Below the pieces are notes generated by a model. That model was not told where the DNA came from and ran no database searches. It saw nothing but the letters and a program-made list of their open reading frames with translations. The position numbers and the translations under genes were made by a program. A stretch of DNA of 54,464 bases, taken from positions 62,001 to 116,464 of the forward strand of contig CAUYUJ010000239.1 in the NCBI GenBank assembly GCA_963575745.1. Reading direction: 5' to 3'. The DNA comes from Prorocentrum cordatum. Lineage: Eukaryota. Below, piece by piece: positions 15,857 through 54,464 of this stretch (the first letter of the stretch is position 1; every line of letters starts with the position of its first letter).

Positions 15857-15908
15857 GGGCGTTGGGGTCGGCTACACAGGGCGCGTGCGCCCTAGCCGTG
15901 CAGAGTCC

Positions 15909-28500: not shown

Positions 28501-29179
28501 GGGCAAACCCAGCCTGGCCCAACTCACGCTCTACAAGCAGTGGATGTGGGGCCAAAGATATGGCGCTATCTTGTTTTCCAGTTGAGTTGGATACCTCACC
28601 TGACTTTGTGCAGAATGAGCCCTCGGTGACGGGGGGTTCTCAAGAGCTCGGAGAGTCCGTTGGGAGCAGACCATCTGGGGAGGAGCCATCACAAACACAT
28701 ACCTAGAATCGCCGCAAACGTATCACACACTGGCGCCGGCGGTGAACCGTCAACCTGGTCACCGGCGGTGAACCGTTTTTCTTAAAATCTGCATTTTCAA
28801 TTTTCGATGTTAATACGAGGTCGGTTCCCGGAAGTGAACCCATAGTATAAATCCCTTATTAGAGCTGAGCTGCTCTGGGGACGAAGTTTATATACGTATG
28901 CTTAGCGCAAAAATCTGCTTTCCCAAAGAAAACAAATAATTGAATATCTTTCAAATTCTAGCAAAACTGACCAAAAGTCACCACTTTGTCCGCCCCGGCC
29001 AGGTGGGCGAACTAGCTCCAACCCGCGCCAGAATTCCTCTAGCTCATCGATGACGAAGAGCTCTACGAGGTAATATGCGAAACAGTGTCAAGATGGCCAA
29101 AAGAACAGACGGGTATCCCTGGGGACCACCTCACCCACTCGCCCTGCCTGTGAGTTGCCAGAGGGACCGCGGACATCAA
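25531..29179 (+). pseudogene. Decayed LINE ORF2 (APE + RT), same clade as the 15909 element
   Basis: One frame with stops at 25802, 27797 and 28583. Motifs SIYLP, IDAN, YDYL, SDH, GSDGV, LDVACAFD, VRTG, WADN. Interrupted by a B element at 28730-29072. Confidence 0.88.
28730..29072 (-). mobile_element. Family-B non-autonomous Helitron2-like element with a rearranged 3' hairpin
   Basis: a|ctggcgccggcggtgaaccgtcaacc ... gaagagctctacgaggta. The LINE sequence continues on both sides without a TSD. Confidence 0.8.
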
Positions 29180-31382: not shown

Positions 31383-32502
31383 CTGGGCGCCGGCGGTAAA
31401 CCGTCAACCTTTCTTACCGCCGGGGGACTCGTAGAGCTTCCTGACAATATATAATGTAGAAAAGAATTTCAGAGAACGACTAGTTTTTCAGCACAAGCGA
31501 TTATAGACCTCTCAAGATGACTCTAACAAAACAAACGAACAGTTTTCCAATCGAGCTCGAGTATGAAACCGAGTTCAGACCTCTGAATGCGACAGGCGGA
31601 CGCGTCTGATGTCTGCGGATCGATTCCTGTGATTACCAGCTCTGCAGCCCCCCATACAGCCTGAGTTAAGTGCAGAAAACCGAGAGTACCTCTCAGGATG
31701 ACTCGAATAATACAACAGTTTCGCGGATCTCGTTCGAGCAGCAGACCGAGTTCCGAGCTCTCGGTTCGACGAACGGACGCGCCTGATGTCTCGAAATCGA
31801 TTCCTGTGACCAGCAGCACTGTAGCCCTCCCCAGCACGATTTAAGTACAGAAAACCGAGAGCACTTCTCAAGATGACTCGAACAATACCAATAGGTTCGC
31901 GAACCTAGCTCGGGGAGCAGGCCGAGTTCAGAGCTCTTGATTCAACAGACGAACGCGCCTGATAATTCTGAATCGATTTCTGTGATTATCAGCTCTGTGG
32001 CTGCCCTACAGATCGAGTTAAGTACGAAAAACCGAGAGCGTCTGCTACAATAACTCGAATAATACGAATAGGTTTGCGACCCTAGCTCGGCTAGCAGACC
32101 GAGTTCAGACCTCTAGATTCAACAGGCGAACGCGCCTGATCATTCTGAATGCATTAGCTGTGCTTACCAGCTCTGTAGCTGTCCTAAAGCTCAAGTTATG
32201 TTCAGATAACCGACAGCGCGTATCAAGATGACTCGAAACGGCCGTTCCCGCCTGCCTGCTTTTTGGCCTTCAAAGTTACCCGATCGAGCTGAGATCAAGA
32301 TGGCGAGCGGGAAAAAGATCGAATATCATGGGAAAAAAAACTAGAGCTCTAACGAATTGTCAAATTTCGAGAACCAAATTTTCAACCGACCAAAAGTCAG
32401 CAAAAGGTCCGTCGAGATTTTTCTTGTCAACTAGCTCTCCAGCTCCCCGGAATTACTCTTAAGCTTCCAGCAATAACTTGCTAAGGGAAGCTCTACGAGT
32501 TA
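31383..32502 (-). mobile_element. Intact family-A element (1120 bp)
   Basis: Both ends present (ctgggcgccggcggtaa... and ...ggaagctctacgagtta). Internal ccgagtt anchors at 31568, 31745, 31921 and 32098 give a 176-177-bp period. Confidence 0.88.
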
Positions 32503-33781
32503 CGATCTCGCCTGATACGCGGGCGCGCCAACACTGGCGCCGGCGGTAAACCGTCAACCTTTCTTACCGCCGGGGGACTCGTAGAGCTTCCTGACAATAT
32601 ATAATGTAGAAAAGAATTTCAGAGAACGACTAGTTTTTCAGCCCAAGCGATTATAGACCTCTCAAGATGACTCTAACAAAACAAACGAACAGTTTTCCAA
32701 TCGAGCTCGAGTATGAAACCGAGTTCAGACCTCTGAATGCGACAGGCGGACGCGTCTGATGTCTGCGGATCGATTCCTGTGATTACCAGCTCTGCAGCCC
32801 CCCATACAGCCTGAGTTAAGTGCAGAAAACCGAGAGTACCTCTCAGGATGACTCGAATAATACAACAGTTTCGCGGATCTCGTTCGAGCAGCAGACCGAG
32901 TTCCGAGCTCTCGGTTCGACGAACGGACGCGCCTGATGTCTCGAAATCGATTCCTGTGACCAGCAGCACTGTAGCCCTCCCCCAGCACGATTTAAGTACA
33001 GAAAACCGAGAGCACTTCTCAAGATGACTCGAACAATACCAATAGGTTCGCGAACCTAGCTCGGGGAGCAGGCCGAGTTCAGAGCTCTTGATTCAACAGA
33101 CGAACGCGCCTGATAATTCTGAATCGATTTCTGTGATTATCAGCTCTGTGGCTGCCCTACAGATCGATTTAGTACGAAAAACCGAGAGCGTCTGCTACAA
33201 TAACTCGAATAATACGAATAGGTTTGCGACCCTAGCTCGGCTAGCAGACCGAGTTCAGACCTCTAGATTCAACAGGCGAACGCGCCTGATCATTCTGAAT
33301 GCATTAGCTGTGCTTACCAGCTCTGTAGCTGTCCTAAAGCTCAGTTATGTTCAGATAACCGACAGCGCGTATCAAGATGACTCGAAACGGCCGTTCCCGC
33401 CTGCCTGCTTTTTGGCCTTCAAAGTTACCCGATCGAGCTGAGATCAAGATGGCGAGCGGGAATAAGATCGAATATCATGGGAAAAAATACTAGAGCTTTA
33501 ACGAATTGTCAAATTTCGAGAACCAAATTTTCAACCGACCAAAAGTCAGCAAAAGGTCCGTCGAGATTTTTCTTGTCAACTAGCTCTCCAGCTCCCCGGA
33601 ACTGGGCGCCGGCGGTACACCGTCAACCTTTCTACCGCCGGGGGACTCGTAGAGCTTCCTGACAATATATAATGTGGAAAAGGATTTCAGAGAACGACTA
33701 GTTTTTCAGCCCAAGCGATTATAGACCTCTCAAGATGACTCTAACAAAACAAACGAACAGTTTTCCAATCGAGCTCGAGTA

Positions 33782-34907
33782 CTGGGCGCCGGCGGTAAAC
33801 CGTCAACCTTTCTTACCGCCGGGGGACTCGTAGAGCTTCCTGACAGTATATAATGTGGTGAGAAATGCCAGAGAAATATTTTTTCATCCCAAGCGATTTC
33901 AGACCTCTCAAGATGACGCTAACAAAAAAAACAAACAGTTTGGTAACCCTGCTCGAGTATCAAACCGAGTTGAGACCTCTGAATGCGACAGGCGGACGCG
34001 TCTGATGTCTGCGAATCGACTCCAGTAATTACCAGCTCTGCAGCCCCCCTACAGCCCGAGTTAAGTGCAGACAACCGACAGCACCTCTCAGCATGACTCG
34101 AATAATACAATAGTTTCGCGGAGCTAGTTCGAGCAGCAGACCGAGTTCCGAGCTTTGGGTTCGACAGACGGACGCGCCTGATGTTCCCGAATCGATTTCT
34201 GTGACCAGCAGCACTGTAGCACCCCCCCCCCCCCCCCAGCAAGAGTTAAGTGCAGAAAACTGAGAGCATTTATCAAGATGACTCAAATAATGCTACTAGT
34301 TTCGCGAAACTAGCTCGGGCAGCAGGCCGAGTTCAGAGCTCGTGATTCAACAGACCGGCGCGCCTGATGATTCTCAATCGATTCATGTGACTATGAGCTC
34401 TGTCGCTGCCCTACAGCTCGAGTTGAGTACAAAAAACCAAGAGGGTCTGCTCAGATGACTCGAATAATACAAATAGGTTTGCGGACCTGGCTCGGCTAGC
34501 AGACCGAGTTCAGACCTCTTGATTGAACAGGCGAACGCGCCTCATCATTCTGAATCGATTAGCTGTGCTTACCAGCCCTGTAGCTGTCCTAATGCTCGAG
34601 TTATGTTCAGCAAACCGCGATCGCGTAGCAAAATGACTTAAAACGGCCGATCCCGCCTGCCCGCTTTTTGGCAGTGAAAGGTACCCGATCGAGCTGAGAT
34701 CAAGATGGCGAGCGGAAATAAGATCACATATCATGGGAAAAAATACTAGAGCTCAAACGAATTGTTGAATTTCGAGAACAAAATTTTCAACCGACCAAAA
34801 GTCACCAAAAGGTCCGTCGAGATTTTTCTTGCCAACTAGCTCTCCAGCGCGCCGGAATTACTCTTAAGCTTCCAGCAATAACTTGCTAAGGGAAGCTCTA
34901 CGAGTTT
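33782..34907 (-). mobile_element. Intact family-A element nested in the copy starting at 33602
   Basis: Host gagctcgagta|tgaaaccgag is split with no TSD and resumes at 34908. Confidence 0.88.
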
Positions 34908-37866
34908 TGAAACCGAGTTCAGACCTCTCAATGCGACAGGCGGGCGCGTCTGATGTCTGCGGATCGATTCCTGTGATTACCAGCTCTGCAGCCCCCCCAT
35001 ACAGCCTGAGTTAAGTGCAAAAAACCGAGAGCACCTCTCAGGATGACTCGAATAATACAACAGTTTCGCCGATCTCGCTCGAGCAGCAGACCGAGTTCCG
35101 AGCTCTCGGTTCGACGAACGGACGCGCCTGATGTCTCGAAATCGATTCCTGTGACCAGCAGCACTGTAGCCCTCCCCCAGCACGATTTAAGTACAGAAAA
35201 CCGAGAGCACTTCTCAAGATGACTCGAACAATACCAATAGGTTCGCGAACCTAGCTCGGGGAGCAGGCCGAGTTCAGAGCTCTTGATTCAACAGACGAAC
35301 GCGCCTGATAATTCTCAATCGATTTCTGTGATTATCAGCTCTGTGGCTGCCCTACAGATCGAGTTAAGTACGAAAAACCGAGAGCGTCTGCTACAATGAC
35401 TCGAATAATACGAATAGGTTTGCGACCCTAGCTCGGCTAGCAGACCGAGTTCAGACCTCTGGATTCAACAGGCGAACGCGCCTGATCATTCTGAATGCAT
35501 TAGCTGTGCTGACCAGCTCTGTAGTTGTCCTGAAGCTCGAGTTATCTTGAGAAAACCGACAGCGCGTATCAAGATGACTCGAAACGGCCGTTCCCGCCTG
35601 CCTGCTTTTTGGCCTTCAAAGTTACCCGATCGAGCTGAGATCAAGATGGCGAGCGGGAATAAGATCGAATATCATGGGAAAAAATACTAGAGCTCTAACG
35701 AATGGTCAAATTTCGAGAACAAAATTTTCAACCGACCAAAAGTCACAAAAGGTCCGTCGAGATTTTTCTTGCCAACTAGCTCTCCAGCTCCCCGGAACTG
35801 GGCGCCAGCGGTAAAACCGTCAACCTTTCTTACCGCCGGGGGACTCGTAGAGCTTCCTGACAATATATAATGTGGAAAAGAATTTCAGAGAACGACTAGT
35901 TTTTCAGCCCAAGCGATTATAGACCTCTCAAGATGACTCTAACAAAACAAACGAACAGTTTTCCAATCGAGCTCGAGTATGAAACCGAGTTCAGACCTCT
36001 GAATGCGACAGGCGGACGCGTCTGATGTCTGCGGATCGATTCCTGTGATTACCAGCTCTGCAGCCCCCCATACAGCCTGAGTTAAGTGCAGAAAACCGAG
36101 AGTACCTCTCAGGATGACTCGAATAATACAACAGTTTCGCGGATCTCGTTCGAACAGCAGACCGAGTTCCGAGCTCTCGGTTCGACGAACGACGCGCCTG
36201 ATGTCTCGAAATCGATTCCTGTGACCAGCAGCACTGTAGCCCTCCCCCAGCACGATTTAAGTACAGAAAACCGAGAGCACTTCTCAAGATGACTCGAACA
36301 ATACCAAAAGGTTCGCGAACCTAGCTCGGGGAGCAGGCCGAGTTCAGAGCTATTGATTCAACAGACGAACGCGCCTGATAATTCTCAATCGATTTCTGTG
36401 ATTATCAGCTCTGTGGCTGCCCTACAGATCGAGTTAAGTACGAAAAACCGAGAGCGTCTGCTACAATGACTCGAATAATACGAATAGATTTGCGACCCTA
36501 GCTCGGCTAGCAGACCGAGTTCAGACCTCTGGATTCAACAGGCGAACGCGCCTGATCATTCTGAATGCATTAGCTGTGCTGACCAGCTCTGTAGTTGTCC
36601 TGAAGCTCGAGTTATCTTGAGAAAACCGACAGCGCGTATCAAGATGACTCGAAACGGCCGTTCCCGCCTGCCTGCTTTTTGGCCTTCAAAGTTACCCGAT
36701 CGAGCTGAGATCAAGATGGCGAGCGGGAATAAGATCGAATATCATGGGAAAAAATACTAGAGCTCTAACGAATGGTCAAATTTCGAGAACAAAATTTTCA
36801 ACCGACCAAAAGTCACCAAAAGGTCCGTCGAGATTTTTCTTGCCAACTAGCTCTCCAGCTCCCGGAACTGGGCGCCGGCGGTAAACCGTCAACCTTTCTT
36901 ACCGCCGGGGGACTCGTAGAGCTTCCTGACAATATATAATGCGAAAAAGAATTTCAGAGAACGACTAGTTTTTCAGCCCAAGCGATTATAGACCTCTCAA
37001 GATGACTCTAACAAAACAAACGAACAGTTTCCCAATCGAGCTCGAGTATAAAAACCGAGTTCAGACCTCTGAATGCGACAGGCGGACGCGTAGGATGTCT
37101 GCGGATCGATTCCTGTAATTACCAGCTCTGCAGCCCCCCATACAGCCTGAGTGAAGTGCAGAAAACCGAGAGTACCTCTCAGGATAACTCGAATAATACA
37201 ACAGTTTCGCGGATCTCGTTCGAGCAGCAGACCAAGTTCCGAGCTTTCGGTTCGACGAACGGACGCGCCTGATGTCTCGAAATCGATTCCTGTGACCAGC
37301 AGCACTGTAGCCCTCCCCCAGCACGATTTAAGTATTGGAAACCGAGAGCACTTCTCAAGATGAATCGAACAATACCAATAGGTTCGCGAACCTAGCTCGG
37401 GGAGCAGGCCGAGTTCAGAGCTCTCGATTCAACAGACGAACGCGTCTGATGATTCCCAAATCGATTTCTGTGATTATCAGCTCTGTGGCTGCCCTACAGA
37501 TCGAGTTCAGTACGAAAAACCGAGAGCGTCTGCTATAATAACTCGAATAATACGAATAGGTTTGGGACCCTAGCTCTGCTAGCAGACTGAGTTCGGACCT
37601 CTAGATTCGACAGCCGAACGCGCCTGATCATTCTGCATCGATTAGCTGTGCTCACCAGCTCTGTAGCTGTCCTGAAGCTCGAGTTATCTTGAGAAAACCA
37701 AGAGCGCGTATCAAGATGACTCGAAACGGCCGTTCCCGCCTGCCTGCTTTTTGGCCTTCAAAGTTACTCGATCGAGCTGAGATCAAGATGGCGAGCGGGA
37801 ATAAGATCGAATATCATGGGAAAAAATACTAGAGCTCTAACGAATTGTCAAATTTTAAGAACAAAA

Positions 37867-38264
37867 CTGGCGCCGGCGGTGAACCGTCAACCTGGTCACC
37901 GCCGGGAACCTCGTAGAGCTCCTTTCACGTAAGAGTGCTCAGAGTCGAAAGAAAAGAGCTTCTGGAAGCATTTCTCGAAAAAGAGAAAAATTGATTTTTT
38001 TCGTGTCGAGAGGAAGATGGTTCCGCCAAGTGTTTTGCTAGTAAAAGTGCGCCTACAGAGCTCATACTCAGACAGAGAGGCCCTCATAGTCGTTTACAGG
38101 TGCGAAGAATCTGCTTTCTCAAAATGAATTGTCAAATATCTTTCAAAAAATTGCAAAACCACCCGAAAGTTATCACTTTGTCCTTTTTGGCCGGGTCGAC
38201 CAACTAGCTCCGCCCCGCGCCGGAATTCCTCTAGCTCATCGATGCCGAAGAGCTCTACGAGGTA
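37867..38264 (-). mobile_element. Intact family-B element (398 bp)
   Basis: ctggcgccggcggtgaacc...tcaccgccgggaacctcgtagagctc ... gagctctacgaggta. Confidence 0.88.
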
Positions 38265-39367
38265 CTGGGCGCCGGCGGTAAACCGTCAACCTTTCTTACC
38301 GCCGGGGGACTCGTAGAGCTTCCTGACAGTATATAGCGTGGAAAAAACTTAAATAACGAATAGGTTTTCAACCCAAGCGATTTCAGATCTCAAGATGACT
38401 CTAACAAAAAAACAAACAGTTTCGCAACCCATTTCGAGTATCAAACCGAGTTCAGACCTCTCAATGCGACGGGCGGGCGCGTCTGATGTCTGCAAACACT
38501 CATAAGATTCCAAGCCCTGCAGCCCCCCTACAGCCCGAGTCTCTGTGCAGAAAACCGACAGTATCGACTCAAATACTAGAATAGTGTCGCGAACCTAGTT
38601 CGAGCAGCAGACCGAGTTCGGAGCTCTGGAATCGACCGACAGACGCGCCTGAGGTGTGGAAATCGATATCTGTGAACCGCAGCACTGTAGCCCTTCCCCA
38701 GCACGAGTTGAGTGCAGAAAATTGAGAGCACTTCTCAAGATAATACGAGATATACGAATAGTTTCGCGAACCTAGCTCGGACAGCAGGCCGAGTTCAGAG
38801 CTCTCGGTTCAATGGACGAACGCAACTGATGATTTCCCATCGATCTCTGTGACAATGAGTCCTGTAGCTGCCCTACAGCTCGAGTTAAGTACAGAAAACC
38901 GAGAGCGTTTGTCAAGACGACTCGAATAATACGGATAGGTTTGCGGGCCTAGCTCGGCTAGCAGACCGAGTTCAGACCTCTGGATTTGACAGGCGAACGC
39001 GCCTGATAATTCTGAATGCGATAGGCGTGCTTACGAGCTCTGTGGTTGCCCTACAGCTCGAGTTAAGTAGAAAATACCGACAACGCGTATCAAGATGACT
39101 CGAAACGACCGATCCCGCCGGGACGCTTTTTGGCAGTAAAAGGTACCCGATCGAGCTGAGATCAAGATGGCGAGCGGGAATAAGATCGAATATCACGGGA
39201 AAAAATACTAGAGCTCTAACGAATGGTCAAATTTCGAGAACAAAGTTTTCAACCGACCAAAAGTCAGCAAAAGGTCCGTCGAGATTTTTCTTGCCAACTA
39301 GCTCTCCAGCGCTCCGGAATTACTCAAGCTTCCAGCAATAACTTGCTAAGGGAAGCTCTACGAGTTA
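38265..39367 (-). mobile_element. Intact family-A element abutting the B element
   Basis: B+A together split host agaacaaaa|ttttcaacc (37866/39368). Confidence 0.88.
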
Positions 39368-39444
39368 TTTTCAACCGACCAAAAGTCACCAAAAGGTCCG
39401 TCGAGATTTTTCTTGTCAACTAGCTCTCCAGCTCCCCGGAATTA

Positions 39445-40493
39445 CTGGGCGCCAGCGGTAAACCGTCAACCTTGGTTACCGCCGGGAGACTCGTAGAGCT
39501 TCCTAACTCGACTTAAGTTGAGAAACCAGACAGCACTTACCAACAATCTGACTTATAGTGAATAGTTTTTGACTTCTGAATACGACAGACGGACGCGTCT
39601 GATGTCTACGAATCGACTCCTGTCATTACCAACCCTGCAGCCACCCTACAGCCCGAGTTAAGTACAGAAATCCAACAGCTCCTCTCAGGATGACTCGAAC
39701 AATAAAATAGTTTCGTGGACCTAGTTCGGGCAGCAGACAGAGTTCGGAGCTCTGTATTCGACAGGCAAGCGCGCCTGATGTCTTGAAATCGATTCCAGTG
39801 ATTACCAGCCATGCAGCCCCCCCTATAGCCCGATTAAGTTCAGATAACCGACAGCATCTCGCAAGCGACTCGAACGATACGAATAGTTTCGCGATTCTAG
39901 ATCGGGCAGCAGACCGAGTTCGGAGCTCTGCATTCGACAGACAAACGCAATTGATGATTCTGAATTGGCACCTGTAAATATCAGCTCTGACGCTGTCCTA
40001 CAGCTCGAGTTAAGTGCAGAAATCAAGAGCTTTTGTCAAGATGACTCGAATAATACGAACAGGTTCGCGGACCTAGCTCGGCTAGCAGACCGAGTTCAGA
40101 CCTCTGGGTTGAACAGGCGAACGCGCCTAATCATTGTGAATGCATTAGCTGTGCTTACCAGCTCTGTAGCTGCCCTAGAGCTCGAGTTATGTTCAGAAAA
40201 CCGTCAGCGCATATCAAGATGACTCGAAACGGTCGTTCCCGCCACAGTGCTTTTCGATAGTAGTATTCACCCGATCGAGCTGAGATCAAGATGGCGAGCG
40301 GGAATGAGATCTAATATCACGGGAAAAAATACTAGAGCTCTAACGAATGGTCAAATTTTGAGAACAAAATTTTCAGCCGAGCAAAAGTCAGCAAAAGGTC
40401 CGTCGAGATTTTTCTTGCCAACTAGCTCTCCAGCGCTCCGGAATTACTCTAAAGCTTCCAGCAATAACTTGCTAAGGGAAGCTCTACGAGTTA
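39445..40493 (-). mobile_element. Intact family-A element
   Basis: Both termini present. The next copy starts directly at 40494. Confidence 0.88.
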
Positions 40494-43371
40494 CTGGGCG
40501 CCGGCGGTAAACCGTCAACCTTGGTTACCGCCGGGAGACTCGTAGAGCTTCCTAACTCGACTTAAATTGAGAAAACCGAGAGCACTTACCAACAATCTGA
40601 CTTATAGTGAATAGTTTTTTACCTCTGAATACGACAGACGGACGCGTCTGATGTCTGCGAATCGACTTCTGTCATGACTAGCCCTGCAGCCCTTCTACAG
40701 CCCGAGTTAAACGCAGAAAACCGACAGCACTTCTCAGGATGACTCGAACAATAAAATAGTTTCGCGCACCTAGTTCGGGCAGCAGACAGAGTTCGGAGCT
40801 CTCTATTCGACAGGCGCACGCGCCTGATGTCTTCAAATCGATTCCAGCGATTACCAGCCATGCAGCCCCCCTACAGCAGCATCTCGCAAGCAACTCGAAC
40901 GATACGAATAGTTTCGCGCTTCTAGATCGGGCAGCAGACCGAGTTCAGAGCTCTAGATTCGGCAGACAAACGCAACTGATGATTCTGAATCGGTGCCTGT
41001 AAATATCAGCTCTGACGCTGTCCTACAGCTCGAGTTAAGTGCAGAAAACCAAGAGTTTTTGTCAAGACGACTCGAATAATACGAACAGGTTTGCGGACCT
41101 AGCTCGGCCAGTAGACCGAGTTCAGACCTCTGGGTTCAACAGGCGAACGCGCCTGATCATTCTGCATGCATTAGCTGTGCTCACCAGCTCTGTAGCTGCC
41201 CTAGAGCTCGAGTTATGTTCAGAAAACCGTCAGCGCATATCAAGATGACTCGAAACGGCCGTTCCCGCCACAGTGCTTTTCGATAGTAATATTCACCCGA
41301 TCGAGCTGAGATCAAGATGGCGAGCGGGAATAAGATCGAATATCACGGCAAAAAAATACTAGAGCTCAAACGAATGGTCAAATTTTGAGAACGAAATTTT
41401 CAACCGAGCAAAAGTCACCAAATGGACGCCGGCGGTAAACCGTCAACCTTGGTTACCGCCGGGAGACTCGTAGAGCTTCTCGACTGAAGTTGAGAACGCC
41501 GAGCACCTACCAACATTCCGACTCATAGTGAATATTTTGTGACCTCTCAATGCGACAGGCGAACGCGTCTGATGTCTGCGAGTCGACTGCTGTCATCACC
41601 AGCCCTGCAGCCCCCCTACAGCCCGAGTTGAGTACAGCACCTCTCAGGATGACTCCAACAATACAGTAGTTTCGCAGACCTCATTCGGGCAGCAGACCGA
41701 GTTCCGAGCTCTGGATTCGACAGGCGGACGCGTCTGATGTCTTCAACTGGATTCCTGTGACCACAAGCACTGTAGCTCCCCTCAGCGCGAGTTAAATGGA
41801 GGCAACCGAGAGCACTTCTCAAGATGGTTCGACCAATACGAATAGTTTCGCGATTCTAGATCGGGTAGCAGACCGAGTTCAGAGCTCTGAATTCGACACA
41901 CAAACGCAACTGATGATTCTGAATCGTTTCCTGTAAATATCAGCTCCGTAGCTGTCCTACAGCTCGAGCTAAGTAGAAAAAACCGAGAGTTCCTGTCAAG
42001 ATGCCTTCAATAATACAAATAGGTTTCCAGACCTAGCTCGGCTAGCAGACCGAGTTCAGACCTCTGGGTTCAACAGGCGAACGCGCCTCATCATTCTGAA
42101 TGCGATAGCTGTGCTTACCAGCTCTGTAGCTGCCCTGAAGCTCGAGTTATGTTCAGATAACCGTCAGCGCGTATCAAGATGACTCCAAACGGACGATCCC
42201 GCCACAGTGCTTTTTGACAGTAATATTCACCCGATCGAGCTGAGATCAAGATGGCGAGCGGGAATAAGGTCGAATATCACGGGAAAAAATACTAGAGCTC
42301 TAACGAATGGTCAAATTTCGAGAACAAAATTTTCAACCGAGGAAAAATCACCAAAAGTTCCGTCGAGATTTTTCTTGCCAACTAGCTCTCCAGCGCTCCG
42401 GAATTACTGGGCGCCGGCGGTAAACCGTCAACCTTTGTTACCGCCGGGGGACTCGTAGAGCTTCCTGAGAACATATAATGTAGAAAAAAAATTCAGAGAA
42501 CGAATAGTTTTTCAGTCCAACTCGAGTATCAGAGCGAGTTCAGACCTCTGAATGCGACAGACGGACGCGTCTGATGTCTTCGAATCGATTCATGTGATTA
42601 CCCGCCCTGCAGCCTCCCTACAGCCCGAGTTAAGTGCAGAACGCCGACAGTAGCGCTCAAGATGACTGGAAGAATACGAACAGTTTCGTGATTCTGAATC
42701 GCTCAGCAGACCGAGTTCAGAGCTCTGGAATCGACAGACAAACGCAACTGATCATTCTGGATTGGTTTCTGTAACTATCAGCCCTGTAGCTGTCCTATAG
42801 CTCGAGTTAAGTACAAGAAACCGAGAGCGCCTATCAGGATGATTCGAATAATACGAATAGGTTTGCGGACCTGGCTCGGCTAGCAGACCGAGTTCAGACC
42901 TCTGGTTCGAACAGCCGAACGCGCCTGATGATTCTGAGTGCGATAGGTGTGCTTACCAGCACTATAGCTGCCCTACAGCTCGAGTTAAGTAGAAAATACC
43001 GACAACGCGTATCAAGTTGACTCGAATAATAAGAATAGGTTTGCGAACCTAGCTCGGCTAGCAGACCGAGTTCAGACCTATGGATTCAACAGGCGAACGC
43101 GCCTGATCATTCTGCATGCATTAGCTGTGCTGACCAGCACTAAAGCTGCCCTACAGCTCGAGTTAAGTACAAAATACCGACAACGCGTATCAAGATGACT
43201 CGAAACGGCTGATCCCGCCACCGTGCTTTTCGATAGTAATATTCACCCGATCGATCTGAGATCAAGATGGCGAACGAAAAAAAGATCGAATATCACGGGA
43301 AAAAATACTAGACCTCTAACGAATCGTCAAATTTCGAGAACAAAATTTTCAACCGACCAAAAGTCACCAAA

Positions 43372-44333
43372 CTGGGTGCCGGCGGTAAACCGTCAACCTT
43401 GGTTACCGCCGGGAGACTCGTAGAGCTTCCTAACTCGACTTAAGTTGAGAAAACCGAGAGCACTTACCAACAATCTGACTTATAGTGAATAGCCCGAGTG
43501 AAGTGCAGAAAACCGACAGCACCTCTCAGGATGACTCGAACAATAGGAATAGTTTCGCGAACCTAGTTCGGGCAGCAGACAGAGTTCAGAGCTTTGCATT
43601 CGACAGGCGGACGCCTGATGTCTTCAAATCGATTCCAGTGATTACCAGCCATGCAGCCCCCCTACAGCCCGACTTAAGTCCAGATAACCGACAGCATCTT
43701 CCAAGCGACTTGAACGATACGAATAGTTTAACGATTCTAGATCGGGCAGCAGACCGAGTTCAGAGCTCTGGCTTCGAGAGACAAACGCAACTGATGATTC
43801 TGAATTGGTGCCTGTGAATATGAGCTCTGTAGCTGTCCTACAGCTCGAGTTAAGTCGAGAAAACCGAGAGTTTATGTCAAGATGACTCGAATAATACGAA
43901 TAGGTTTGCGGACCTAGCTCGGCTAGCAGGCCGAGTTCAGACCTCTGGGTTCAACAGGCGAACGTGCCTGATCATTCTGCATGTATTAGCTGTGCTTACC
44001 AGCTCTGTAGCTACCCTGGAGCTCGAGTTATGTTGAGAAAACCGTCAGCGCGTATCAAGATGACTCGAAACGGCCGTTCCCGCCACAGTGCTTTTCGATA
44101 GTAATATTCACCCGATCGAGCTGAGATCAAGATGGCGAGCGGGAATAAGATCGAATATCACGGGAAAAAATACTAGAGCTCTAACGAATAGTCAAATTTC
44201 GAGAACCAAATTTTCAACCGAGGAAAAGTCACCAAAAGTTCCGTCGAGATTTTTCTTGCCAACTAGCTTTCCAGCGCGCCGGAATTACTCTTAGCTTCCA
44301 GCATTTACTTGCTAAGGGAAGCTCTACGAGTTA
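43372..44333 (-). mobile_element. Intact family-A element
   Basis: Splits host gtcaccaaa|agttccgtcg with no TSD. Confidence 0.88.
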
Positions 44334-45676
44334 AGTTCCGTCGAGATTTTTCTTGCCAACTAGCTCTCCAGCGCTCCGGAACTTGCTATGTCCAAAACCC
44401 GGATAGCATTAGGCGCTCGAAACTGGGCGCCGGCGGTAAACCGTCAATCTTGGTTACCGCCGGGGAACTCGTAGAGCTTCCAAGCTCGACTTAAGTTGAG
44501 AAAACCGAGAGCACCTACCAACATTCTGACTTATAGTGAATATGGTTTGACCTCTGAATGCGACAAGCAGACGCGTCTAATCAGACCGAGTTCAGATCTC
44601 TCAATGTGACAGACGGACGCGTCTGATGTATGCGAATCGACTCGTGTGATTACCAGCCCTGCAGCCCCCCTACAGCCCGAGTTAAGTCCGACAGCATCTC
44701 TCAGGATAACTCGAATAATAAAATAGTTTCGCAGACCTGTTTCGAGCAGCAGACCAAGTTCTCAGCTCTCGAATCGACCAACGAACGCGCCTCATGTGTG
44801 CAAATCGATTTCTATGACCCGCAGCACTGTAGCCCTCCCCAGCACGAGTTGAGTGCAGAAAATTGAGAGCACTTTTCACGATGATTCGAACAATACGAAT
44901 TATTTCGCGATTCTACATCGGGCAGCAGGCCGAGTTCAGAGCTCTCGATACAACAGACAAACGCGCCCGATAATTCTCAATCGATTTCTGTGGCTGTGGG
45001 CTCTGTAGCTGCCTACAGCTCGAGTTAAGTACAGAAAATAGCGAGAGCGTTTGTCAAGATGGACAACGCGTATCAAGTTGACTCGAATAATACGAATAGG
45101 TTTGCGGACCTAGCTCGGCTAGCAGACCGAGTTCAGACCTATGGATTCAACAGACGAACGCGCCTGATGATTCTGAGTGCGATAGGTGTGCTTACCCGCA
45201 CTGTAGCTGCCCTACAGCTCGAGTTGAGAAGAAAATACCGACAACGCGTATCAAGTTGACTCGAATAATACGAATAGGTTTGCGGACTTAGCTCGGCTAG
45301 CAGACCGAGTTCAGACCTATGGATTCAACAGGCGAACGCGCCTGATGATTTTGATTGCGATAGCTGTGGTTACCAGCTCTGTAGCTGTCCTAGAGCTCGA
45401 GTTAAGTACAAAATACCGACAACGTGCATCAAGATGACTCGAAACGGCCGATCCCGCCAGTGCTTTTTGGCAGTAAAAGGTACCCGATCGAGCTGAGATG
45501 AAGATGGCGAGCGGAATTAAGATCGAATATCACGGGAAAAAATACTAGAGCTCTAACGAATGGTCAAATTTCGAGAACATAATTTTCAACCGACCAAAAG
45601 TTGTGAAAAGTTCGGTTCTTTTTTTTCGAGCCAACTAGCTCTCCAGCGCGCCGGAATTACTCTTAGCTTCCAGCTA

Positions 45677-46019
45677 CTTGCTATGTCCAAAAAACCCGGA
45701 TAGCATTAGGCGCTCGAAACGTCGTCGGAGACGCCTGGAACGGCGCCTTGGACGATGCCTGGGGCGCTGCGCGAGGACCGCGCAAGCGCTGCGTAGGAGC
45801 TTGCGAGCGCCGTGGCGATGACTGCCTGGGAGCTTCGGCAACGCCGCCGCCACGCGTATTGGGAAACGCTAGGAACAGCGCTCCCGGACACGCTGCAAGC
45901 CCCGGCGAGTCGCTGCGGGGGTCGTGGAGCGGGGAGCGTGGGAGTGCAGCGATGCACGCGCACCCGCCGGCTTCTCCTCTAACAACCCTATGTAGCCCAA
46001 CAAAAGGGCTATCCGGGAA
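45677..46019 (-). mobile_element. Intact family-C element (343 bp)
   Basis: cttgctatgtccaaaaaacccggatagc ... tagcccaacaaaagggctatccgggaa. A second copy is split into 44382-44422 and 46449-46748. Confidence 0.85.
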
Positions 46020-46022
46020 TAA

Positions 46023-46422
46023 CTGGCGCCGGCGGTGAACCGTCAACCTGGACACCGCCGGGAACCTCGTAGAGCTCCTGGCACGCGTAAGAGTGCTCAG
46101 CATCAAAAGAGAAAGCTTCTCGAAGCATTTCTCGGAAAACAGGAAACATGATTTTTTTTGATGTCGACATAAAGATGGTTCCGCCAAGTGTTTTGATAGT
46201 AAAAGCGCATCTACAGAGCTCATATTAAGACGCAGAGGCCCTCATAGTCGTTTACAGGTGCGAAAAATCTGCTTTCTCAAAATAAATGGTCAAATATCTG
46301 TTAAATTCTTGCAAAACCGACCAAAAGTTACCACATTGTCCGTTCTGGTCGGGTCGACCAACTAGCTCCACCCCGCGCCGGAATTCCTCTAGCTCATCGA
46401 TGCCGAAGAGCTCTACGAGGTA
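46023..46422 (-). mobile_element. Intact family-B element
   Basis: Both ends present. Removing C and B restores host cagcta|taa|ctagctaaggg, as seen uninterrupted at 53441-53460. Confidence 0.88.
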
Positions 46423-47133
46423 CTAGCTAAGGGAAGCTCTACGAGTTACGTCGTCGGAGACGCCTGGAACGGCGCCTTGGACGATGCCTGGGGCGCTGCG
46501 CGAGGACCGCGCAAGCGCTGCGTAGGAGCTTGCGAGCGCCGTGGCGATGACTGCCTGGGAGCTTCGGCAACGCCGCCGCCACGCGTATTGGGAAACGCTA
46601 GGAACAGCGCTCCCGGACACGCTGCAAGCCCCGGCGAGTCGCTGCGGGGATCGTGGAGCGCGGAGCGTGGGAGTGCGGCGATGCACGCGCACCCGCCGGC
46701 TTCTCCTCTAACAACCCTATGTAGCCCAACACAAGGGCTATCCGGGAATTACTCTTAAGCTTCCAGCAATACCGTGCTAAGGGAAGCTCTACGAGTTACT
46801 CTCAAGCTTCCAGCAACAACTTGCTTAGGGGAGCTCTACGAGTTAGTTCCGTCGAGATTTTTCTTGCCAACTAGCTCTCCAGCGCTCCGGAATTACTCTA
46901 AAGCTTCCAGCAATAACTTGCTAAGGGAAGCTCTACGAGTTACTCGTAAGCTTCCAGCAATAACTTGCTAAGGGAAGCTCTACGAGTTATTACTCTTAAG
47001 CTTCCAGCAATAACTTGCTCAGGGAAGCTCTACGAGTTATTACTCTTAAGCTTCCAGCAACTGGGCGCCGGCGGTAAACCGTCAACCTTGGTTACCGCCG
47101 GGAGACTCGTAGAGCTTCCTAACTCGACTTAAA

Positions 47134-48192
47134 TAACACGTAGAGCTTCCCTCAGCAAGTTATTGCTGGAAGCTTTAGAGTAATTCCGGAGCGCTGGAGA
47201 GCTAGAAGGCAAGAAAAATCTCGACGGAACTTTTGGTGACTTTTGGTCGGTTGAAAATTTTGTTCTCGTGATTTGACCATTCGTTAGAGCTCTAGTATTT
47301 TTTCCCGTGATATTCGATCTTATTCCCGCTCGCCATCTTGATCTCAGATCGATCGGGTGAATATTACTATCGAAAAGCACGGTGGCGGGATCGGCCGTTT
47401 CGAGTCATCTTGATACGCGTTGTCGGTATTTTGTTCTTAACTCGAGCTGTAGGCAGCTACAGTGCTGATAAGCACACCTATCGCACTCAGAATCATCAGG
47501 CGCGTTCGCCTGTTGAATCCATAGGTCGGAACTCGGTCTGCTAGCCGAGCTAGGTTCGCAAACCTAGTCGTATTATTCGAGTCAACTTGATACGCGTTAT
47601 CGGTATTTTCTACTGAACTCGAGCTGTAGGGCAGCTACAGTGCTGGTAAGCACACTTATCGCTCTCAGAATGATCAGGCGCGTTCGACTGTTCGAACCAG
47701 AGGTCTGAACTCGGCCTGCTAGCCGAGCCAGGTCCGCAAACTTATTCGTATTATTCGAATTATCTCGATAGGCGCTCTCGATTCCCTGTACCTAACTCGA
47801 GCTATAGGACAGCTACAGGGCTGATAGTTACAGAAACCGATTCAGAATCATCAGTCGCGCTTGTCTGTCGAATCCAGAGCTCTGAACTCGGTCTGCTGCG
47901 CGATCCAGAATCACGAAACTGTGTATTCTTCCAGTCATCTTGAGAGCTACTGTCGGCGTTCTGCACTTAACTCGGGCTGTAGGGAGCTGCAGGGCGGGTA
48001 ATCACATGAATCGATTCGGAGACATCAGACGCGTCCGTCTGTCGCATACAGAGGTCTGAACTCGGTCTGATACTCGAGTTGGACTGAAAAACTATTCGTT
48101 CTCTGCAATTTTTTCCGACATTATATGTTGTCAGGAAGCTCTACGAGTCCCCCGGCGGTAACAAAGGTTGACGGTTTACCGCCGGCGCCCAG
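47134..48192 (+). mobile_element. Intact family-A element in the opposite orientation
   Basis: TAACACGTAGAGCTTCC...TTACCGCCGGCGCCCAG splits host cgacttaaa|tcgagaaaacc with no TSD. Confidence 0.9.
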
Positions 48193-51100
48193 TCGAGAAA
48201 ACCGAGAGCACTTACCAACAATCTGACTTATAGTGAATAGTTTTTTACCTCTGAATACGACAGACGGACGCGTCTGATGTCTGCGAACCGACTTCTGTCA
48301 TCACTAGCCCTGCAGCCCTTCTACAGCCCGAGTTAAACGCAGAAAACCGACAGCACTTCTCAGGATGACTCGAACAATAAAATAGTTTCGCGCACCTAGT
48401 TCGGGCAGCAGACAGAGTTCGGAGCTCTCTATTCGACAGGCGGACGCGCCTGATGTCTTCAAATCGATTCCAGCGATTACCAGCCATGCAGCCCCCCTAC
48501 AGCAGCATCTCGCAAGCAACTCGAACGATACGAATAGTTTCGCGATTCTAGATCGGGCAGCAGACCGAGTTCAGAGCTCTAGATTCGGCAGACAAACGCA
48601 ACTGATGATTCTGAATCGGCGCCTGTAAATATCAGCTTTGACGCTGTCCTACAGCTCGAGTTAAGTGCAGAAAACCAAGAGTTTTTGTCAAGACGACTCG
48701 AATAATACGAACAGGTTTGCGGACCCAGCTCGGCCAGTAGACCGAGTTCAGACCTCTGGGTTCAACAGGCGAACGCGCCTGATCATTCTGCATGCATTAG
48801 CTGTGCTCACCAGCTCTGTAGCTGCCCTAGAGCTCGAGTTATGTTCAGAAAACCGTCAGCGCATATCAAGATGACTCGAAACGGCCGTTCCCGCCACAGT
48901 GCTTTTCGATAGTAATATTCACCCGATCGAGCTGAGATCAAGATGGCGAGCGGGAATAAGATCGAATATCACCGGAAAAAATACTAGAGCTCTAACGAAT
49001 GGTCAAATTTCGAGAACGAAATTTTCAACCGAGCAAAAGTCACCAAAAGTTCCGTCGAGATTTTTCTTGCCAACTAGCTCTCCAGCGCTCCGGAACTGGC
49101 GCCGGCGGTGAACCGTCAACCTGGTGACCGCCGGGAACCTCGCAGAGCTCCTCTCACTGCTAAGTGTGCAGAGAATCGACACAAAGTGGAAAACAAGAAA
49201 TTTTTCGAAAATCTTGATTTTCGATTTTTTCGATGTTCATGTTCGCTCAGTTCCCGGAAGTGAACTCATGCAAAAATGCATCGGGAGAGCTGAGCTGCTG
49301 TCAGAGAGGAGTTTACATGCCAATGCGACGCGCATAAATCTGCTTTCTCAAAGTAAATGGTCAAATATCTTTCAAACTGGGCGCCGGCGGTAAACCGTCA
49401 ACCTTGGTTACCGCCGGGGAACTCGTAGAGCTTCCTGACTCGACTTAAGTTGAGAAAACAGACAGCACTTACGAACAATCTGACTTATAGGAAAATAGTT
49501 TTTGACCTCTAAATGCGACAGACAGGCGCGTCTGATGTCTGCAAATCGACGCCTGTCATTACAAGCCCTGCAGCTCCCCTACAGCCCGAGTTAAGTGCAG
49601 AAACCCGACAGCACCTCTCAGGATGACTCGAACAATAGGAATAGTTTCGCGGACCTAGTTCGGGCAGCAGACGAAGTTCAGAGCTCTATATTCGACATGC
49701 GGACGCGCCTGATGTCTTCAAATCGATCCCAGTGATAACCAGCCATGCAGCCCCCCTACAGCCCGAGTTAAGTCCAGATAATCGACATTATCTTGCAAGC
49801 GACTCGAACGATACGAATAGTTTCGCGATTCTAGATCGGGCAGCAGGCCGAGTTCAGAGCTTTCGAGTCGACAGACAAACGCAACTGATGATTATGAATT
49901 GGTGCCTCTGAATATCAGCTCTGTAGCTGTCCTACAGCTCGAGTTAAGTGTAGAAAACCGAGCGTTTCTGTCAAAATGACTCGAATAATACGAACAGGTT
50001 TGTGACCCTAGCTCGGCTAGCAGACCGATTTCAGACCCCTGGATTCGACAGGCGAACGCGCCTGATCATTCTGCATTCTCAAAGTAAATGGCCAAATATC
50101 TTTCAAATTTTCGCAAAACCGACCAAAAGTCACCAATTTGTCCTTTCTGGCCGGGCGGTCCAACTAGCTCCACCCCGCGCCGGAATTCCTGTAGCTCATC
50201 GATGCCGAAGAGCTCTACGAGGTATTACACTAAAGCTTCCAGCAATAACTTGCTAAGGGAAGCTCTACGAGTTACTTGTAAGCGTCCAAAACCCGGATAG
50301 CAACTGGGCGCCGGCGGTAAACCGTCAACCTTGGTTACCGCCGGGGGACTCGTAGAGCTTCCTAACTCGACTTAAGTTGAGAAAAGAGACAGCACTTACC
50401 AACAATCTGACTTATAGTGAATAGTTTTTTACTCTGAATGCGACAGACGGACGCGTCTGATGTCTGCGAATCGACTCCTGTCATTATCAGCCCTGCCGCC
50501 CCCCTACAGCCCGAGTTAAGTGCAGAAACCCGACAGCACCTCTCAGGATGACTCGAATAATAGGAATAGTTTCGCGGACCTAGTCCAGCAGACAGAGTTC
50601 AGAGCTCTGTATTCGACATGCGGACGCGCCTCATGTCTTCAAATCGATCCCAGTGATTACCAGCCATGCAGCCCCCCCTACAGCCCGAGTTAAGTCCAGA
50701 TAACCGACATTATCTCGCAAGCGACTCGAACGATACGAATAGTTTCGCGATTCTAGATCGCGCAGCAGGCCGAGTTCAGAGCTCTGGAGTCGACAGACAA
50801 ACGCAACCGATGATTCTGAATTGGTGCCTCTGAATATCAGCTCTGTAGCTGTCCTACAGCTCGAGTTAAGTCCAGAAAATCGAGCGTTTCTGTAAAAATG
50901 ACTCGAATAATACGAACAGGTTTGTGATCCTAGCTCGGCTAGCAGACCGAGTTCAGACCTCTGGATTCAACAGGCGAACGCGCCTGATCATTCTGCATGC
51001 ATTAGCTGTGCTTACCAGCTCTGTAGCTGCCCTAGAGCTCGAGTTATCTTCAGAAAACCGTCAGCGCATATCAAGATGACTCAAAACGGCCGATCCCGCC

Positions 51101-52415
51101 ACAGTGCTTTTCGATAGTAATATTCACCCGATCGAGCTGAGATCAAGATGGCGAGCGGGAATAAGATCGAATATCACGGGAAAAAATACTAGAGCTCTAA
51201 CGAATGTTCAAATTTTGAGAACAAAATTTTCAACCGACCAAAAGTTGTCAAAAGTTCAGTCGAGATTTTTCGAGCCAACTGGACGCCGGCGGTAAACCGT
51301 CAACCTTGGTTACCGCCGGGAGACTCGTAGAGCTTCCAGCTCGACTGAATTTGAGAACACCGAGAACCTACCAACATTCCGACTCATAGTAAATATTTTG
51401 TGTCTCTCAATGCGACAGGCGGACGCGTCTGATGTCTGCAAGTCGACTTCTATCATTACCAGCCCTGCAGCCACCCTACAGCCCGAGTTGAGTGCAGAAA
51501 ACTGACTGCACCTCTCAGGATGACTCCAACAATACAATAGTTTCGCAGACCTAATTCGGGCAGCAGACGAGTTCAGAGCTCTGGTCCGCAGGCGGATGCG
51601 CCTGATGTCTCTGAATCGATTGCTGTCCCCAGCCGCACTGTAGCCTCCCCCCAGCACGAAATACCGACAGCACTTCTCAGGATGACTCGAACAATTCGAA
51701 TAGTCTTGCGAACCTAGCTCGGGCAGCAGGCCAAGTTCAGTGCTCTCGAGTCAACGAACAAAGGCGCCTGGTCATTTCCAATAGATTTCTGTGACTACGA
51801 GCTCTGTAGCTGCCCTACGGCGCGAGTTAAGTACAGAAAACCGAGGGCGCCTATCAAGATGACCCAAATAATACGAATAGGTTTGCGGACCTAGCTCGGC
51901 TAGCAGACCGAGTTCAGACCTCTAGATTTAACAGGCGAACGCGCCTAATCATTCTGACTGCGATAGATGTGCTTGCCAGCTCTGTAGCTGCCTTACAGCT
52001 CGAGTTAAGACCAGAAAACCGAGAGTTTCTGTAAAGATAACTCGAATAATACGAACAGGTTTCCGCACCTAGCCCGGCTCACAGACCGAGTTCAGACCTC
52101 TGGGTCCAACAGGCGAACGCGCCTGATCATTCTGCATGCATTAGCTGTCTTACCAGCTCTGTAGCTGCCCTAGAGCTCGAGTTATGTTCAGAAAACCGAC
52201 AGCGCGTATCAAGATGACTCGAAACGGGCGTTCCCGCCACAGTGCTTTTTGGCCTTCGAAGTTACCGGATCGAGCTGAGATCAAGATGGCGAGCGGGAAT
52301 AAGATCGAATATCACGGGAAAGAACACTAGAGCTCTAACGAATGGTCAAATTTCGAGACCAAAATTTTCAACTGAGCAAAAGTCAGCAAAAGTTCCGTCG
52401 AGATTTTTCTTGCCA

Positions 52416-53476
52416 CTGGGCGCCGGCGGTAATCCGTCAACCTTTCGAACCGCCGGGGGACTCGTAGAGCTTCCTGACAACATATAATGTCGAAAAAAAT
52501 TGCAGAGAACGAATAGTTTTTCAGTCCAACTCGAGTATCAGACCGAGTTCAGACCTCTGAATGCGACAGACGGACGCGTCTGATGTCTCCGAATCGATTC
52601 ATGTGATTACCCGCCCTGCAGCCTCCCTACAGCCCGAGTTAAGTGCAGAACGCCGACAGTAGCTCTCAAGATGACTGGAAGAATACAAACAGTTTCGTGA
52701 TTCTGGATCGCGCAGCAGACCGAGTTCAGAGCTCTGGAGTCGACAGACAAACGCGACTGATGATTCTGAATCGTTTTCTGTAACTATCAGAGTAGCTCGA
52801 GTAGCTCGAGCTCGAGTTAAGTACAGGAAACCGGGAGCGCCTATCAAGATCATTTGAATAATACGAATAGGTTTGCGGACCTGCCTCGGCTAGCAGACCG
52901 AGTTCAGACCTCTGGTTCGAACAGCCGAACGCGCCTGATCATTCTCAGTGCGATAAGTGTGCTTACCAGCACTGTGGATGCCCTACAGCTCGAGTTAAGT
53001 AGAAAATACCGACAACGCGTATCAAGTTGACTCCAATAATACGAATAGGTTTGCGGACCTATGGTTCAGCTCGGCTAGCAGACCGAGTTGAGACCTATCG
53101 ATTCAACAGGCGAACGCGCCTGATGATTCTGAGTGCGATAGGTGCTTACCAGCACAATAGCTGCCCTACAGCGCAAGTTAAGTACAAAATACCGACAACG
53201 CGTATCAAGATGACTCGAAACCGCCGTTCCTGCCTGCCTGCTTTTGGCCTTCAAAGTTACCCGATCGAGCTGAGATCAAGACGGCGAGCGGGAATAAGAT
53301 CGAATATCACGGGAAAGAATACTAGAGCTCTAACGAATGGTCAAATTTCGAGAATTTCAACTGAGCAAAAGTCAGCAAAAGTTACGTCGAGATTTTTCTT
53401 GCCAACTATCTCTCCAGCGCGCCGGAATTACTCTTCGCTTCCAGCTATAACTAGCTAAGGGGAGCTCTACGAGTTA
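52416..53476 (-). mobile_element. Intact family-A element
   Basis: Both termini present. Confidence 0.82.
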
Positions 53477-54464
53477 CTAGCTGTGGAGCGTCCAAAACCC
53501 GGATAGCGAAGCCACTGGGCGCCGGCGGAAACCGTCAACTTTGATTACCGCCGGGGAACTCCTAGAGCTTCCTAACTCGACTTAAGTTGAGAAAACAGAC
53601 AGCACTTGACAACAATCTGATTTATAGTGAATAGTTTTTGACTTCTAAATACGACAGACGCGTCTGATGTCTGCAAATCGACTTCTGTCATTACGAACCC
53701 TGCAGCCCCCCTACAGCCCGAATTAAGTGCAGAAACCCGACAGCACCTCTCAGGATGACTCGAACAATAGGAATAGTTTCGCGAACCTAGTTCGGGCAGC
53801 AGACAGATTTCAGAGCTCTAGATTCGACATCCGGACGCGCCTGATGTCTTCAAATCGATCCCAGTCATTACCAGCCATGCAGCCCCCTAGAGCCCGAGTT
53901 AAGTCCAGGTAACCGACATTATTTCGCAGGCGACGCGAGCAATACGAATAGTTTCGCGATTCTAGATCACGCAGCAGGCCGAGTTTAGAGCTCTGGAGTC
54001 GACAAACAAACGCAACTAATGATTCTGAATTGGTCCTCTGAATCAGCTCTGTAGCTGTCCTACAGCTCGAGTTAAGTGCAGAATACCGAGCGTTTCTGTC
54101 AAAATGACTCGAATAATACAAACAGGTTTATGACTCTGAGTTCAGACTTCGGGATTGAACAGGCGAACGCACCTGATAATTCTGCATGCTGCCTGCGCTT
54201 ACCAGCTCTGTAGCTGCCCTAGAGCTCGATTTATCTTCAGAAAACCGTCAGCGCACATCAAGATGCCTCAAACCGATCAATCCGGTCACAGTGCTTTTCG
54301 ATAGTAATATTCACCCAATGAAATCAAATATCACGGGAAAAATACTAGAGCTCTAACGAATGGTCAAATTTTCAGAACAAAATTTTCAACCGAGCAAAAG
54401 TTGTTAAAAGTTCAGTCCAGATTTTTCGAGACAACTAGCTGTTGGGCGCGCCCGAATTACTCTT

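Follow-up and report, generated by a model that had tools for sequence, protein, structure and literature searches.

Recurrent insertion points at the 5' hairpins of resident copies in a nest of Helentron/Helitron2-like elements from Prorocentrum cordatum

The DNA analyzed here, referred to as the window, is a stretch of 54,464 nucleotides from Prorocentrum cordatum (GenBank assembly GCA_963575745.1, contig CAUYUJ010000239.1, positions 62,001 to 116,464 of the forward strand). From about 28.7 kb to its end, that is over about 25 kb, the window is occupied by a non-coding nest of transposon-like elements of one unit type with internal repeats spaced 176-178 bp, which we divided into the families S (about 1.0-1.13 kb, several subfamilies), C (about 400 bp) and D (about 345 bp). 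Long open reading frames (ORFs) are few in the window; an ORF of 1245 amino acids on the minus strand (15909-19646) encodes a reverse-transcriptase domain, and a Pfam scan of the window ORFs detected this domain (RVT_1) in that ORF only and neither a Rep nor a helicase domain. No match to Rfam was obtained anywhere in the window.

The map of the nest was built from nine landmark motifs and by mapping onto the window the intact copy S7 (33782-34907; 1126 nt), which serves as the reference and in whose coordinates insertion points are given. By Helentron convention the sense strand of the elements is the minus strand, and the right end of a unit on the plus strand is its sense 5' end; the start of an element as read on the plus strand is called its L end. 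The features, with their strands, are as follows.

28730..54464, minus: whole nest of S, C and D elements, to the window end (landmark map and reference cover)
30003..30995, minus: S1, host broken after ccggaa (reference 1076); left junction only
31383..32503, minus: S4, complete copy of the A1 subfamily
32533..33601, minus: S5, host broken at 1076 by S6
33602..35797, minus: S6 body, parts 33602-33781 and 34908-35797, broken at 1076; tail 47040-47060
33782..34907, minus: S7, complete 1126-nt reference, inside S6 at about reference 180 (tandem repeat and terminal inverted repeat checks)
35798..36867, minus: S8 body, broken at 1076; tail 46990-47039
36868..39444, minus: S9 body, parts 36868-37866 and 39368-39444, broken at 1002 and after ggaatta; tail 46943-46989
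37867..38264, minus: C1, about 400 bp, without 177-bp repeats, inside S9 at 1002
38265..39367, minus: S11, complete, flush with the C1 end
39445..40493, minus: S12, complete, inside S9 after ggaatta; reference for matching run contigs
40494..41421, minus: S13 body, flush with the S12 end, broken at 1028; tail 46846-46942
41422..42406, minus: S14 body, broken after ggaatta; tail 46799-46845
42407..44381, minus: S15 body, parts 42407-43371 and 44334-44381, broken at 1028 and 1076; tail 46749-46798
43372..44333, minus: S16, complete, inside S15 at 1028
44382..44422, minus: D1, left part, resuming at 46449-46748; inside S15 at 1076
44423..45683, minus: S18 body, inside D1, broken in the hairpin loop; tail 46423-46448
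45684..46021, minus: D2, start uncertain (45677-45684)
46022..46422, minus: C2, abutting the D2 end
46749..47060, minus: six host tails (sense 5' heads), in the order S15, S14, S13, S9, S8, S6
47061..50273, minus: S21, parts 47061-47130 and 48193-49095, tail 50225-50273; inside the loop of the S6 tail; broken at about 70 and at 1076
47131..48192, plus: S22, inverted and complete (no other copy is both), outside the hot zone of the host
49096..50223, minus: C3, parts 49096-49376 and 50077-50223, with truncated S24 (49377-50076) inside
50274..50303, minus: D3 fragment, flush with the S21 end
50304..51278, minus: S25, broken at about 1056
51279..52415, minus: S26, broken at about 1053
52416..53475, minus: S27, complete
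53476..53514, minus: D4 fragment, flush with the S27 end
53515..54464, minus: S28, continuing past the window

When the 40 nt on each side of an insert were joined, contiguous host sequence in reference coordinates was restored without any target duplication in 12 cases of S hosts, 11 of which scored 47-75 of 80, while the case of the inverted S22 aligned by its left flank only (score 28). The rejoined D1 host gave, as expected, no alignment to the S reference. The six tails stacked at 46749-47060 start at reference positions 1077, 1080, 1029, 1080, 1077 and 1077, and the corresponding bodies are broken at 1076 (S15), 1079 (S14), 1028 (S13), 1079 (S9), 1076 (S8) and 1076 (S6), which means that the tails follow an exact last-in-first-out order and have the lengths that match the break points. 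Also, five of eight tails best match the intact end of the subfamily of their own body, with margins of 1-2 nt. The restored hosts and the last-in-first-out tails therefore identify true nested insertions and not tandem duplications, and the locus is a Russian-doll nest that arose from successive insertions and is about nine levels deep.

Read on the plus strand, an S unit starts with CTGGGCGCCGGCGG, located within a G+C-rich hairpin, continues with ACTCGTAGAGCTTCC and the 177-bp repeats, and has as its right end ...AACTAGCTCTCCAGC-GCGCCGGAA-TTA-CTCTTAAGCTTCC...GGGAAGCTCTACGAG-TTA. On the minus strand the element begins with TAA-CTCGTAGAGCTTCC and terminates in the complementary subterminal inverted repeat (subTIR), a G+C-rich hairpin and CGCCCAG, the CTCGTAGAGCTTCC near the plus-strand start being the reverse complement of the unit end. 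Sources cited here by PMC number were available in part, and what is said of them refers to those parts. For HINE/DINE-1 elements, subTIRs of 12-15 bp have been described that are separated from the 5' end by 2-4 nt and from the 3' end by 38-60 nt; these elements lack coding capacity, insert into a T-rich target and contain tandem repeats in their center, a palindrome near the 3' end and an inverted repeat next to the 5' subTIR (PMC4067079). In S, the distance of the 14-nt inverted repeat from the end is 3 nt on the sense 5' side and 44 nt on the sense 3' side, within both of these ranges. The first 50 sense nt form a single hairpin in which nt 3-48 are paired in two copies (fold z -2.96 and -2.05), and a 140-nt stretch carrying this hairpin has a fold energy of -23.1 kcal/mol (z -2.96). 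At the 3' side, a stem of about 12 bp ends 7 nt from the 3' end and was found again in 28 copies; the 76-nt stretch with this hairpin is no more stable than its shuffles (z -0.22). The spacing of the central tandem repeats is the same throughout, and Tandem Repeats Finder reported a period of 186 with 1.9 copies in S7. One 177-bp repeat of S7 contains a run of about 17 C (34221-34238) where other copies have 5-8 C. No coding capacity was found in the S elements. Isolated copies with unrelated flanks at 24601-24680 and 23386-23456 fix the phase of the unit. Family C (about 400 bp) follows the same plan without the 177-bp repeats and ends in ...GAGCTCTACGAGGTA, and family D (about 345 bp), again of the same plan, is G+C-rich with the inverted repeat CCCGGATAGC/GCTATCCGGG.

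On the minus strand, the S elements are thus built like non-autonomous rolling-circle transposons of the Helentron/Helitron2 type (HLE2, HINE/DINE-1-like), as published in PMC4067079, PMC5148889 and PMC11417382. As no Rep-helicase gene was found in the ORFs scanned, membership in the Helentron type is a purely structural assignment. Other classes were considered and rejected. A canonical Helitron (HLE1) requires 5'-TC, CTRR-3' and insertion between A and T, and the termini here are TAAC.../...CCCAG with asymmetric terminal inverted repeats (ATIRs). Replitrons would be expected to have terminal direct repeats (PMC10288648), and the terminal repeats here are inverted. A reading as IS200/IS605-like elements, prompted by the string TTAC, was discarded, a single T being the only invariant and the anatomy being that of HLE2.

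New elements start directly after ccggaa at 30995, 33601, 35797, 36867, 44381 and 49095, after ggaatta at 39444 and 42406, and flush with a complete end at 38264, 40493 and 50273/4, and breaks within the terminal hairpin loop occur at 45676-45683 and 47060. All the junctions that the initial annotation had listed were found again, the sole correction being the label of 46022: of the three sites it had placed inside a hairpin, 45676 and 47060 stand, and 46022 is where a C element abuts a D end and not an S hairpin. In reference coordinates, the 12 S-host insertions for which both flanks were validated are located at 70 (inverted), 180, 1002, 1028 (twice), 1076 (four times), 1079 (twice) and about 1100, and the five for which the left junction only is available at 1076 (twice), 1097, 1056 and 1053. 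Another three are flush with the host end, and there are two further flush insertions at ends of C or D. A second stack of tails at 23127-23456, for which the window contains no matching bodies, consists of a D end, an S tail from reference 1001, a C tail and an S tail from reference 1004, so that site 1002 has been used three times in the window.

An accumulation of insertions within about 120 bp of the 5' end of the host, as had been claimed from first inspection, is borne out by the counts. Two interior breaks at the left edge of the nest (28.7-33.6 kb) were counted as outside the hot zone, and of the 22 S-host insertions, 18 are flush with the sense 5' end (on the right in plus-strand view) or no more than 125 nt away from it. 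Since an A stood before the L end in all 31 cases, sites following an A were taken as the null; their share in the terminal zone amounted to 11.1-12.8% in six intact copies, and the highest value (0.128) was used. The clustering is significant with P = 3.6e-13 for all events and with P = 6e-8 when only doubly validated ones (10 of 12) are considered. A single bond, that between ccggaa and ttac (reference 1076), was used six times among 36 candidate sites (P about 2e-4 after correction). Eight window insertions fall at the 3' foot of the 50-nt 5' hairpin (between nt 47 and 48 or nt 50 and 51 from the end), five (and one more in the metagenome contig L006, see below) lie exactly at a resident 5' terminus, and a few further T sites of the hot zone extend to about 125 nt from the resident 5' end. 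Helentron-type elements are expected to insert between T and T without target duplication. In sense terms, every one of the 31 cases here has T as its 3' flank, and the base on the 5' side is A, G or T according to the site. New copies caused no target duplication and were placed with the 3' end beside T, overwhelmingly in the sense strand of the resident. Inserts in the hot zone are co-oriented with their host in 18 of 18 cases (P about 4e-6), both inverted pieces being located elsewhere. An explanation by an antisense pseudo-5'-terminus (ccggaa followed by TTACTCTTAAGCTTCC, which resembles the true terminus) predicts inverted inserts and was rejected, because none of eight inserts at the two hairpin-foot sites is inverted. 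Inserts of all three families share insertion points, and the proposal that families target each other therefore holds.

Similar joints were sought in metagenome contigs by a scan for the L-end motif, which yielded 12 loci, eight of them informative. Those left out were L005 and L007, chance matches lacking hairpin and subTIR (L007 carries an ORF with a GAF domain), L010, which begins at the motif, and L002, in which a tandem unit of about 95-105 bp (L002:1-150) begins with the same hairpin-start motif and may represent a miniature version derived from the 3' end. In L006, an S-type body about 65% identical to the reference shows a stacked tail, a D copy flush with an end and, at 1076, an L end; a further D insert reaches to 1028, the host resuming at 1029. 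In L004, an L end lies between ggaatt and a. Judged from their sequences, these two independent contigs reuse insertion sites of the window. The flank in L001 resembles the 1076 site by eye, a tentative assignment for which BLAST gave no alignment. In L008 and L012, L ends lie 19 and 22 nt, respectively, beyond a complete end, and the flanks in L003, L009 and L011 are unrelated. In addition, contigs from four coded runs, the listed ones being about 90-340 nt long, were matched to S12, and the family proved to be very abundant, with 18,193 matching contigs in X1 and 62,144 in X20. Fifteen joints were listed, with 134 more; among the joints listed, an R end leads back to reference 1077 in at least three contigs of X1 and at least one of X7, and two have TTA or CTCTT between element ends.

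How, then, might such sites be chosen? We give about even odds (roughly 50%) to the reading that this is an HLE2-type matryoshka nest in which the transposase is recruited to the 5'-terminal hairpins of resident copies. An HUH-helicase transposase serving the elements would bind the 5'-terminal hairpin of a resident copy, as it must in order to start rolling-circle replication, and would nick the sense strand, or find it single-stranded, at or just beyond that hairpin. The incoming copy would then be ligated at this point of the sense strand instead of, or besides, replication of the resident. As every insertion would add a fresh and intact 5' hairpin, the locus would go on attracting copies and the nest would grow. 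Recruitment and nicking at the resident 5' hairpin are supported by analogy with Helraiser, whose transposase binds and nicks the left terminal sequence on single-stranded DNA and unwinds in the 5' to 3' direction (PMC4778049, PMC5876387). Of the two routes suggested at the outset, recruitment to existing ends or extruded hairpins fits the site positions, the co-orientation and the use by three families. A more specific version, in which the 50-nt hairpin is the landing pad of the family transposase, with joining points at nt 0/1 and nt 50/51 and the strand rule, and integration is in effect a homing into resident copies, is put forward tentatively, as something that may rather not be the case. 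The self-made safe harbor envisaged earlier would be a reasonable consequence.

Several points weigh against recruitment to resident hairpins. Binding and nicking are inferred, and the enzyme itself is assumed: no match to Helitron_like_N or PIF1 was found among 99 window ORFs, five ORFs scanned separately and, out of 101 ORFs listed from the 12 metagenome loci, the 48 that belong to the eight loci without an S body. All events in the window come from a single locus, and hot-site L ends make up only two, perhaps three, of the eight informative L ends of the metagenome, three others having unrelated flanks. In D hosts, S inserts lie 29-41 nt from the opposite (3') end of D in three of three cases, and none of five C copies carries an insert at the equivalent site after ccggaa and before tt. 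Furthermore, four L ends lie 19-106 nt outside the resident 5' end (29180 and 30003 in the window, and those in L008 and L012), which means that downstream unwinding alone is insufficient.

Among the alternatives, DNA structure alone might suffice, if the 5' palindrome extrudes or breathes and thereby exposes single-stranded T at its feet to any HUH transposase, with no specific recruitment. The two most used points are indeed the two feet of the 50-nt hairpin, two insertions lie in the hairpin loop (45683 and 47060), and HUH enzymes work on single-stranded DNA (PMC4778049, PMC10288648). However, a cruciform exposes both strands and the inserts are nevertheless all co-oriented, the equally strong 3' hairpin of the S hosts has attracted none of the 22 insertions, and sites 69-123 nt from the end fall outside the hairpin. 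We consider this explanation unlikely.

Site reuse would be inflated if junctions had been copied and not made anew, composite units (multi-headed or originating from bypass of a 3' end) being transposed or duplicated as blocks. Composite elements of Fusarium with several 5' termini have been proposed to move as units (PMC5148889), and the tails without bodies at 23127-23456 would be in line with such a process. In the main nest, however, every broken body can be paired with a separate tail that has the expected length and place in the order, tail sequences differ, and identical sites were used by different insert families and in the only about 65% identical host of L006, which makes copied junctions an improbable source of the pattern.

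The other route suggested initially was a re-integration next to the donor, in which the new strand is inserted back into the donor it came from, at the unwound 5' region, and inner and outer copies are daughter and parent. Three of 11 host-insert pairs, all from the A1 run (S6 in S5, S8 in S6 and S9 in S8), are 96-99% identical, and the flush pair S12 and S13 is 94% identical, as this route would require. But identity is only 79-89% in the other eight pairs, so that re-insertion beside the donor is not general; C and D inserts are found in S hosts, and S13 (40494-41421) is 99% identical to S21 (47061-49095), which belongs to a different branch of the nest and is not its host, suggesting a burst of one subfamily. 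New insertions of Helraiser, which belongs to a different group of Helitrons, were not clustered near donor sites (PMC4778049). As a general route, donor-proximal re-integration was thus not upheld and seems very improbable. Finally, that the locus is a tandem array formed by unequal crossing-over or rolling-circle concatemers, or an assembly artefact, with no insertion preference at all, might be suspected from the positions 33602, 35798 and 36868, which are regularly spaced (about 1070 bp), and from the highly repeated nature of the family, but is barely credible, as concatemers or tandem duplication leave no separate host tails, of which there are six in last-in-first-out order, and similar structures occur in independent contigs.

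Some further observations concern the surroundings and less regular parts of the nest. S24, which lacks its right 350 nt, is bordered by a 31-bp direct duplication of C3 (49346-49376 and 50077-50107) with the join at a short similarity, tctgc, which looks like template switching or microhomology repair and not like a clean insertion. The left edge of the nest (28.7-33.6 kb) contains rearranged pieces, including fragments at 30996-31029 and 32504-32532 and an inverted partial copy at 29690-29848. The piece at 30996-31029 is a small duplicated fragment, composed of the first 14 nt of an element start and a 20-nt string also found before the start at 30003 (29984-30002). On either side of the reverse-transcriptase ORF, G+C-rich (58-65%) D-related repeats with short repeats of the GCGCTCCTGAA type occupy 14000-16000 and 20900-23130 and probably represent an older nest that was split by a LINE-like element. 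Two consecutive long ORFs on the plus strand (25862-28585; 645 and 243 amino acids), for which no Pfam match was obtained, stop about 145 nt short of the point where the nest begins its first C element.

The choice of targets by Helitron-type elements is poorly understood beyond the dinucleotide, especially in the Helentron/Helitron2 branch, for which no active system was found in the accessible parts of the literature examined. Base-by-base pairing of host and insert halves provides exact and reused joining points relative to the terminal hairpin, together with a strand rule, and thereby turns a vague 'self-insertion' into predictions that can be tested in cleavage and integration assays. The nest generates hypotheses on target choice in HLE2 elements and suggests how such elements accumulate into very abundant arrays and yet spare genes. 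If the landing-pad reading were true, HLE2 nests would be self-seeding safe harbors and would offer a route from dispersed HINEs to satellite-like arrays and to the stacked 5' termini of fungi, molluscs and insects.

Bacterial IS200/IS605 elements such as IS608 offer a parallel: their subterminal hairpin is recognized by an HUH enzyme, which cuts at a constant distance from it, and the target is tied to the element's own end. These elements employ a Y1 enzyme and a defined tetranucleotide target, whereas here the T 3' of the joint is the only invariant.

Canonical Helitrons (HLE1) share with the present elements single-strand copy-in by an HUH enzyme without target duplication, joining of the 3' end to T and flush head-to-tail junctions (PMC5876387, PMC4778049), and their head-to-tail arrays are known from plants and bats (PMC5876387). 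In contrast to HLE1, the elements described here have ATIRs and neither 5'-TC nor CTRR-3', and their junctions are mostly nested and not concatemeric. With HINE/DINE-1 (PMC4067079) they share subTIR spacing, palindromes, central repeats and the absence of coding capacity; they differ in that the partner Helentron was not found here and that the 5' target flank is not always T, and the available part of that source describes no nucleotide-level hot spots inside resident copies. In Crassostrea gigas, Helentron-type elements with central satellite-like repeats are likewise nested in one another, and the account, as far as the source was available, is qualitative (insertion, deletion and recombination), giving neither fixed points nor an orientation rule (PMC12628747).

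FoHeli1 and FoHeli2, the Helitron2 elements of Fusarium oxysporum, resemble the S elements in having asymmetric TIRs and hairpins at both ends, and in Fusarium Helitron2 copies two to five stacked 5' termini, of less than 200 bp, have been ascribed to self-insertion near the 5' end (PMC5148889, PMC13342296). FoHeli1 and FoHeli2 are autonomous elements of 5-6 kb, and in the portions of these sources at hand host bodies and exact sites are not mapped as a recurrent target; here, unlike there, several families insert into one another and nests of up to about nine levels have survived as a whole. No report of a nucleotide-level insertion hot spot inside resident Helitron-type copies was found in the literature (main texts, excluding supplements), nor did 'Helitron' together with 'into other Helitrons' retrieve any. 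To these known systems, and with no earlier statement found, the locus adds a resolvable nest, nucleotide-exact recurrent joining points at 5' hairpin boundaries, an orientation rule and the use of the same points across families.

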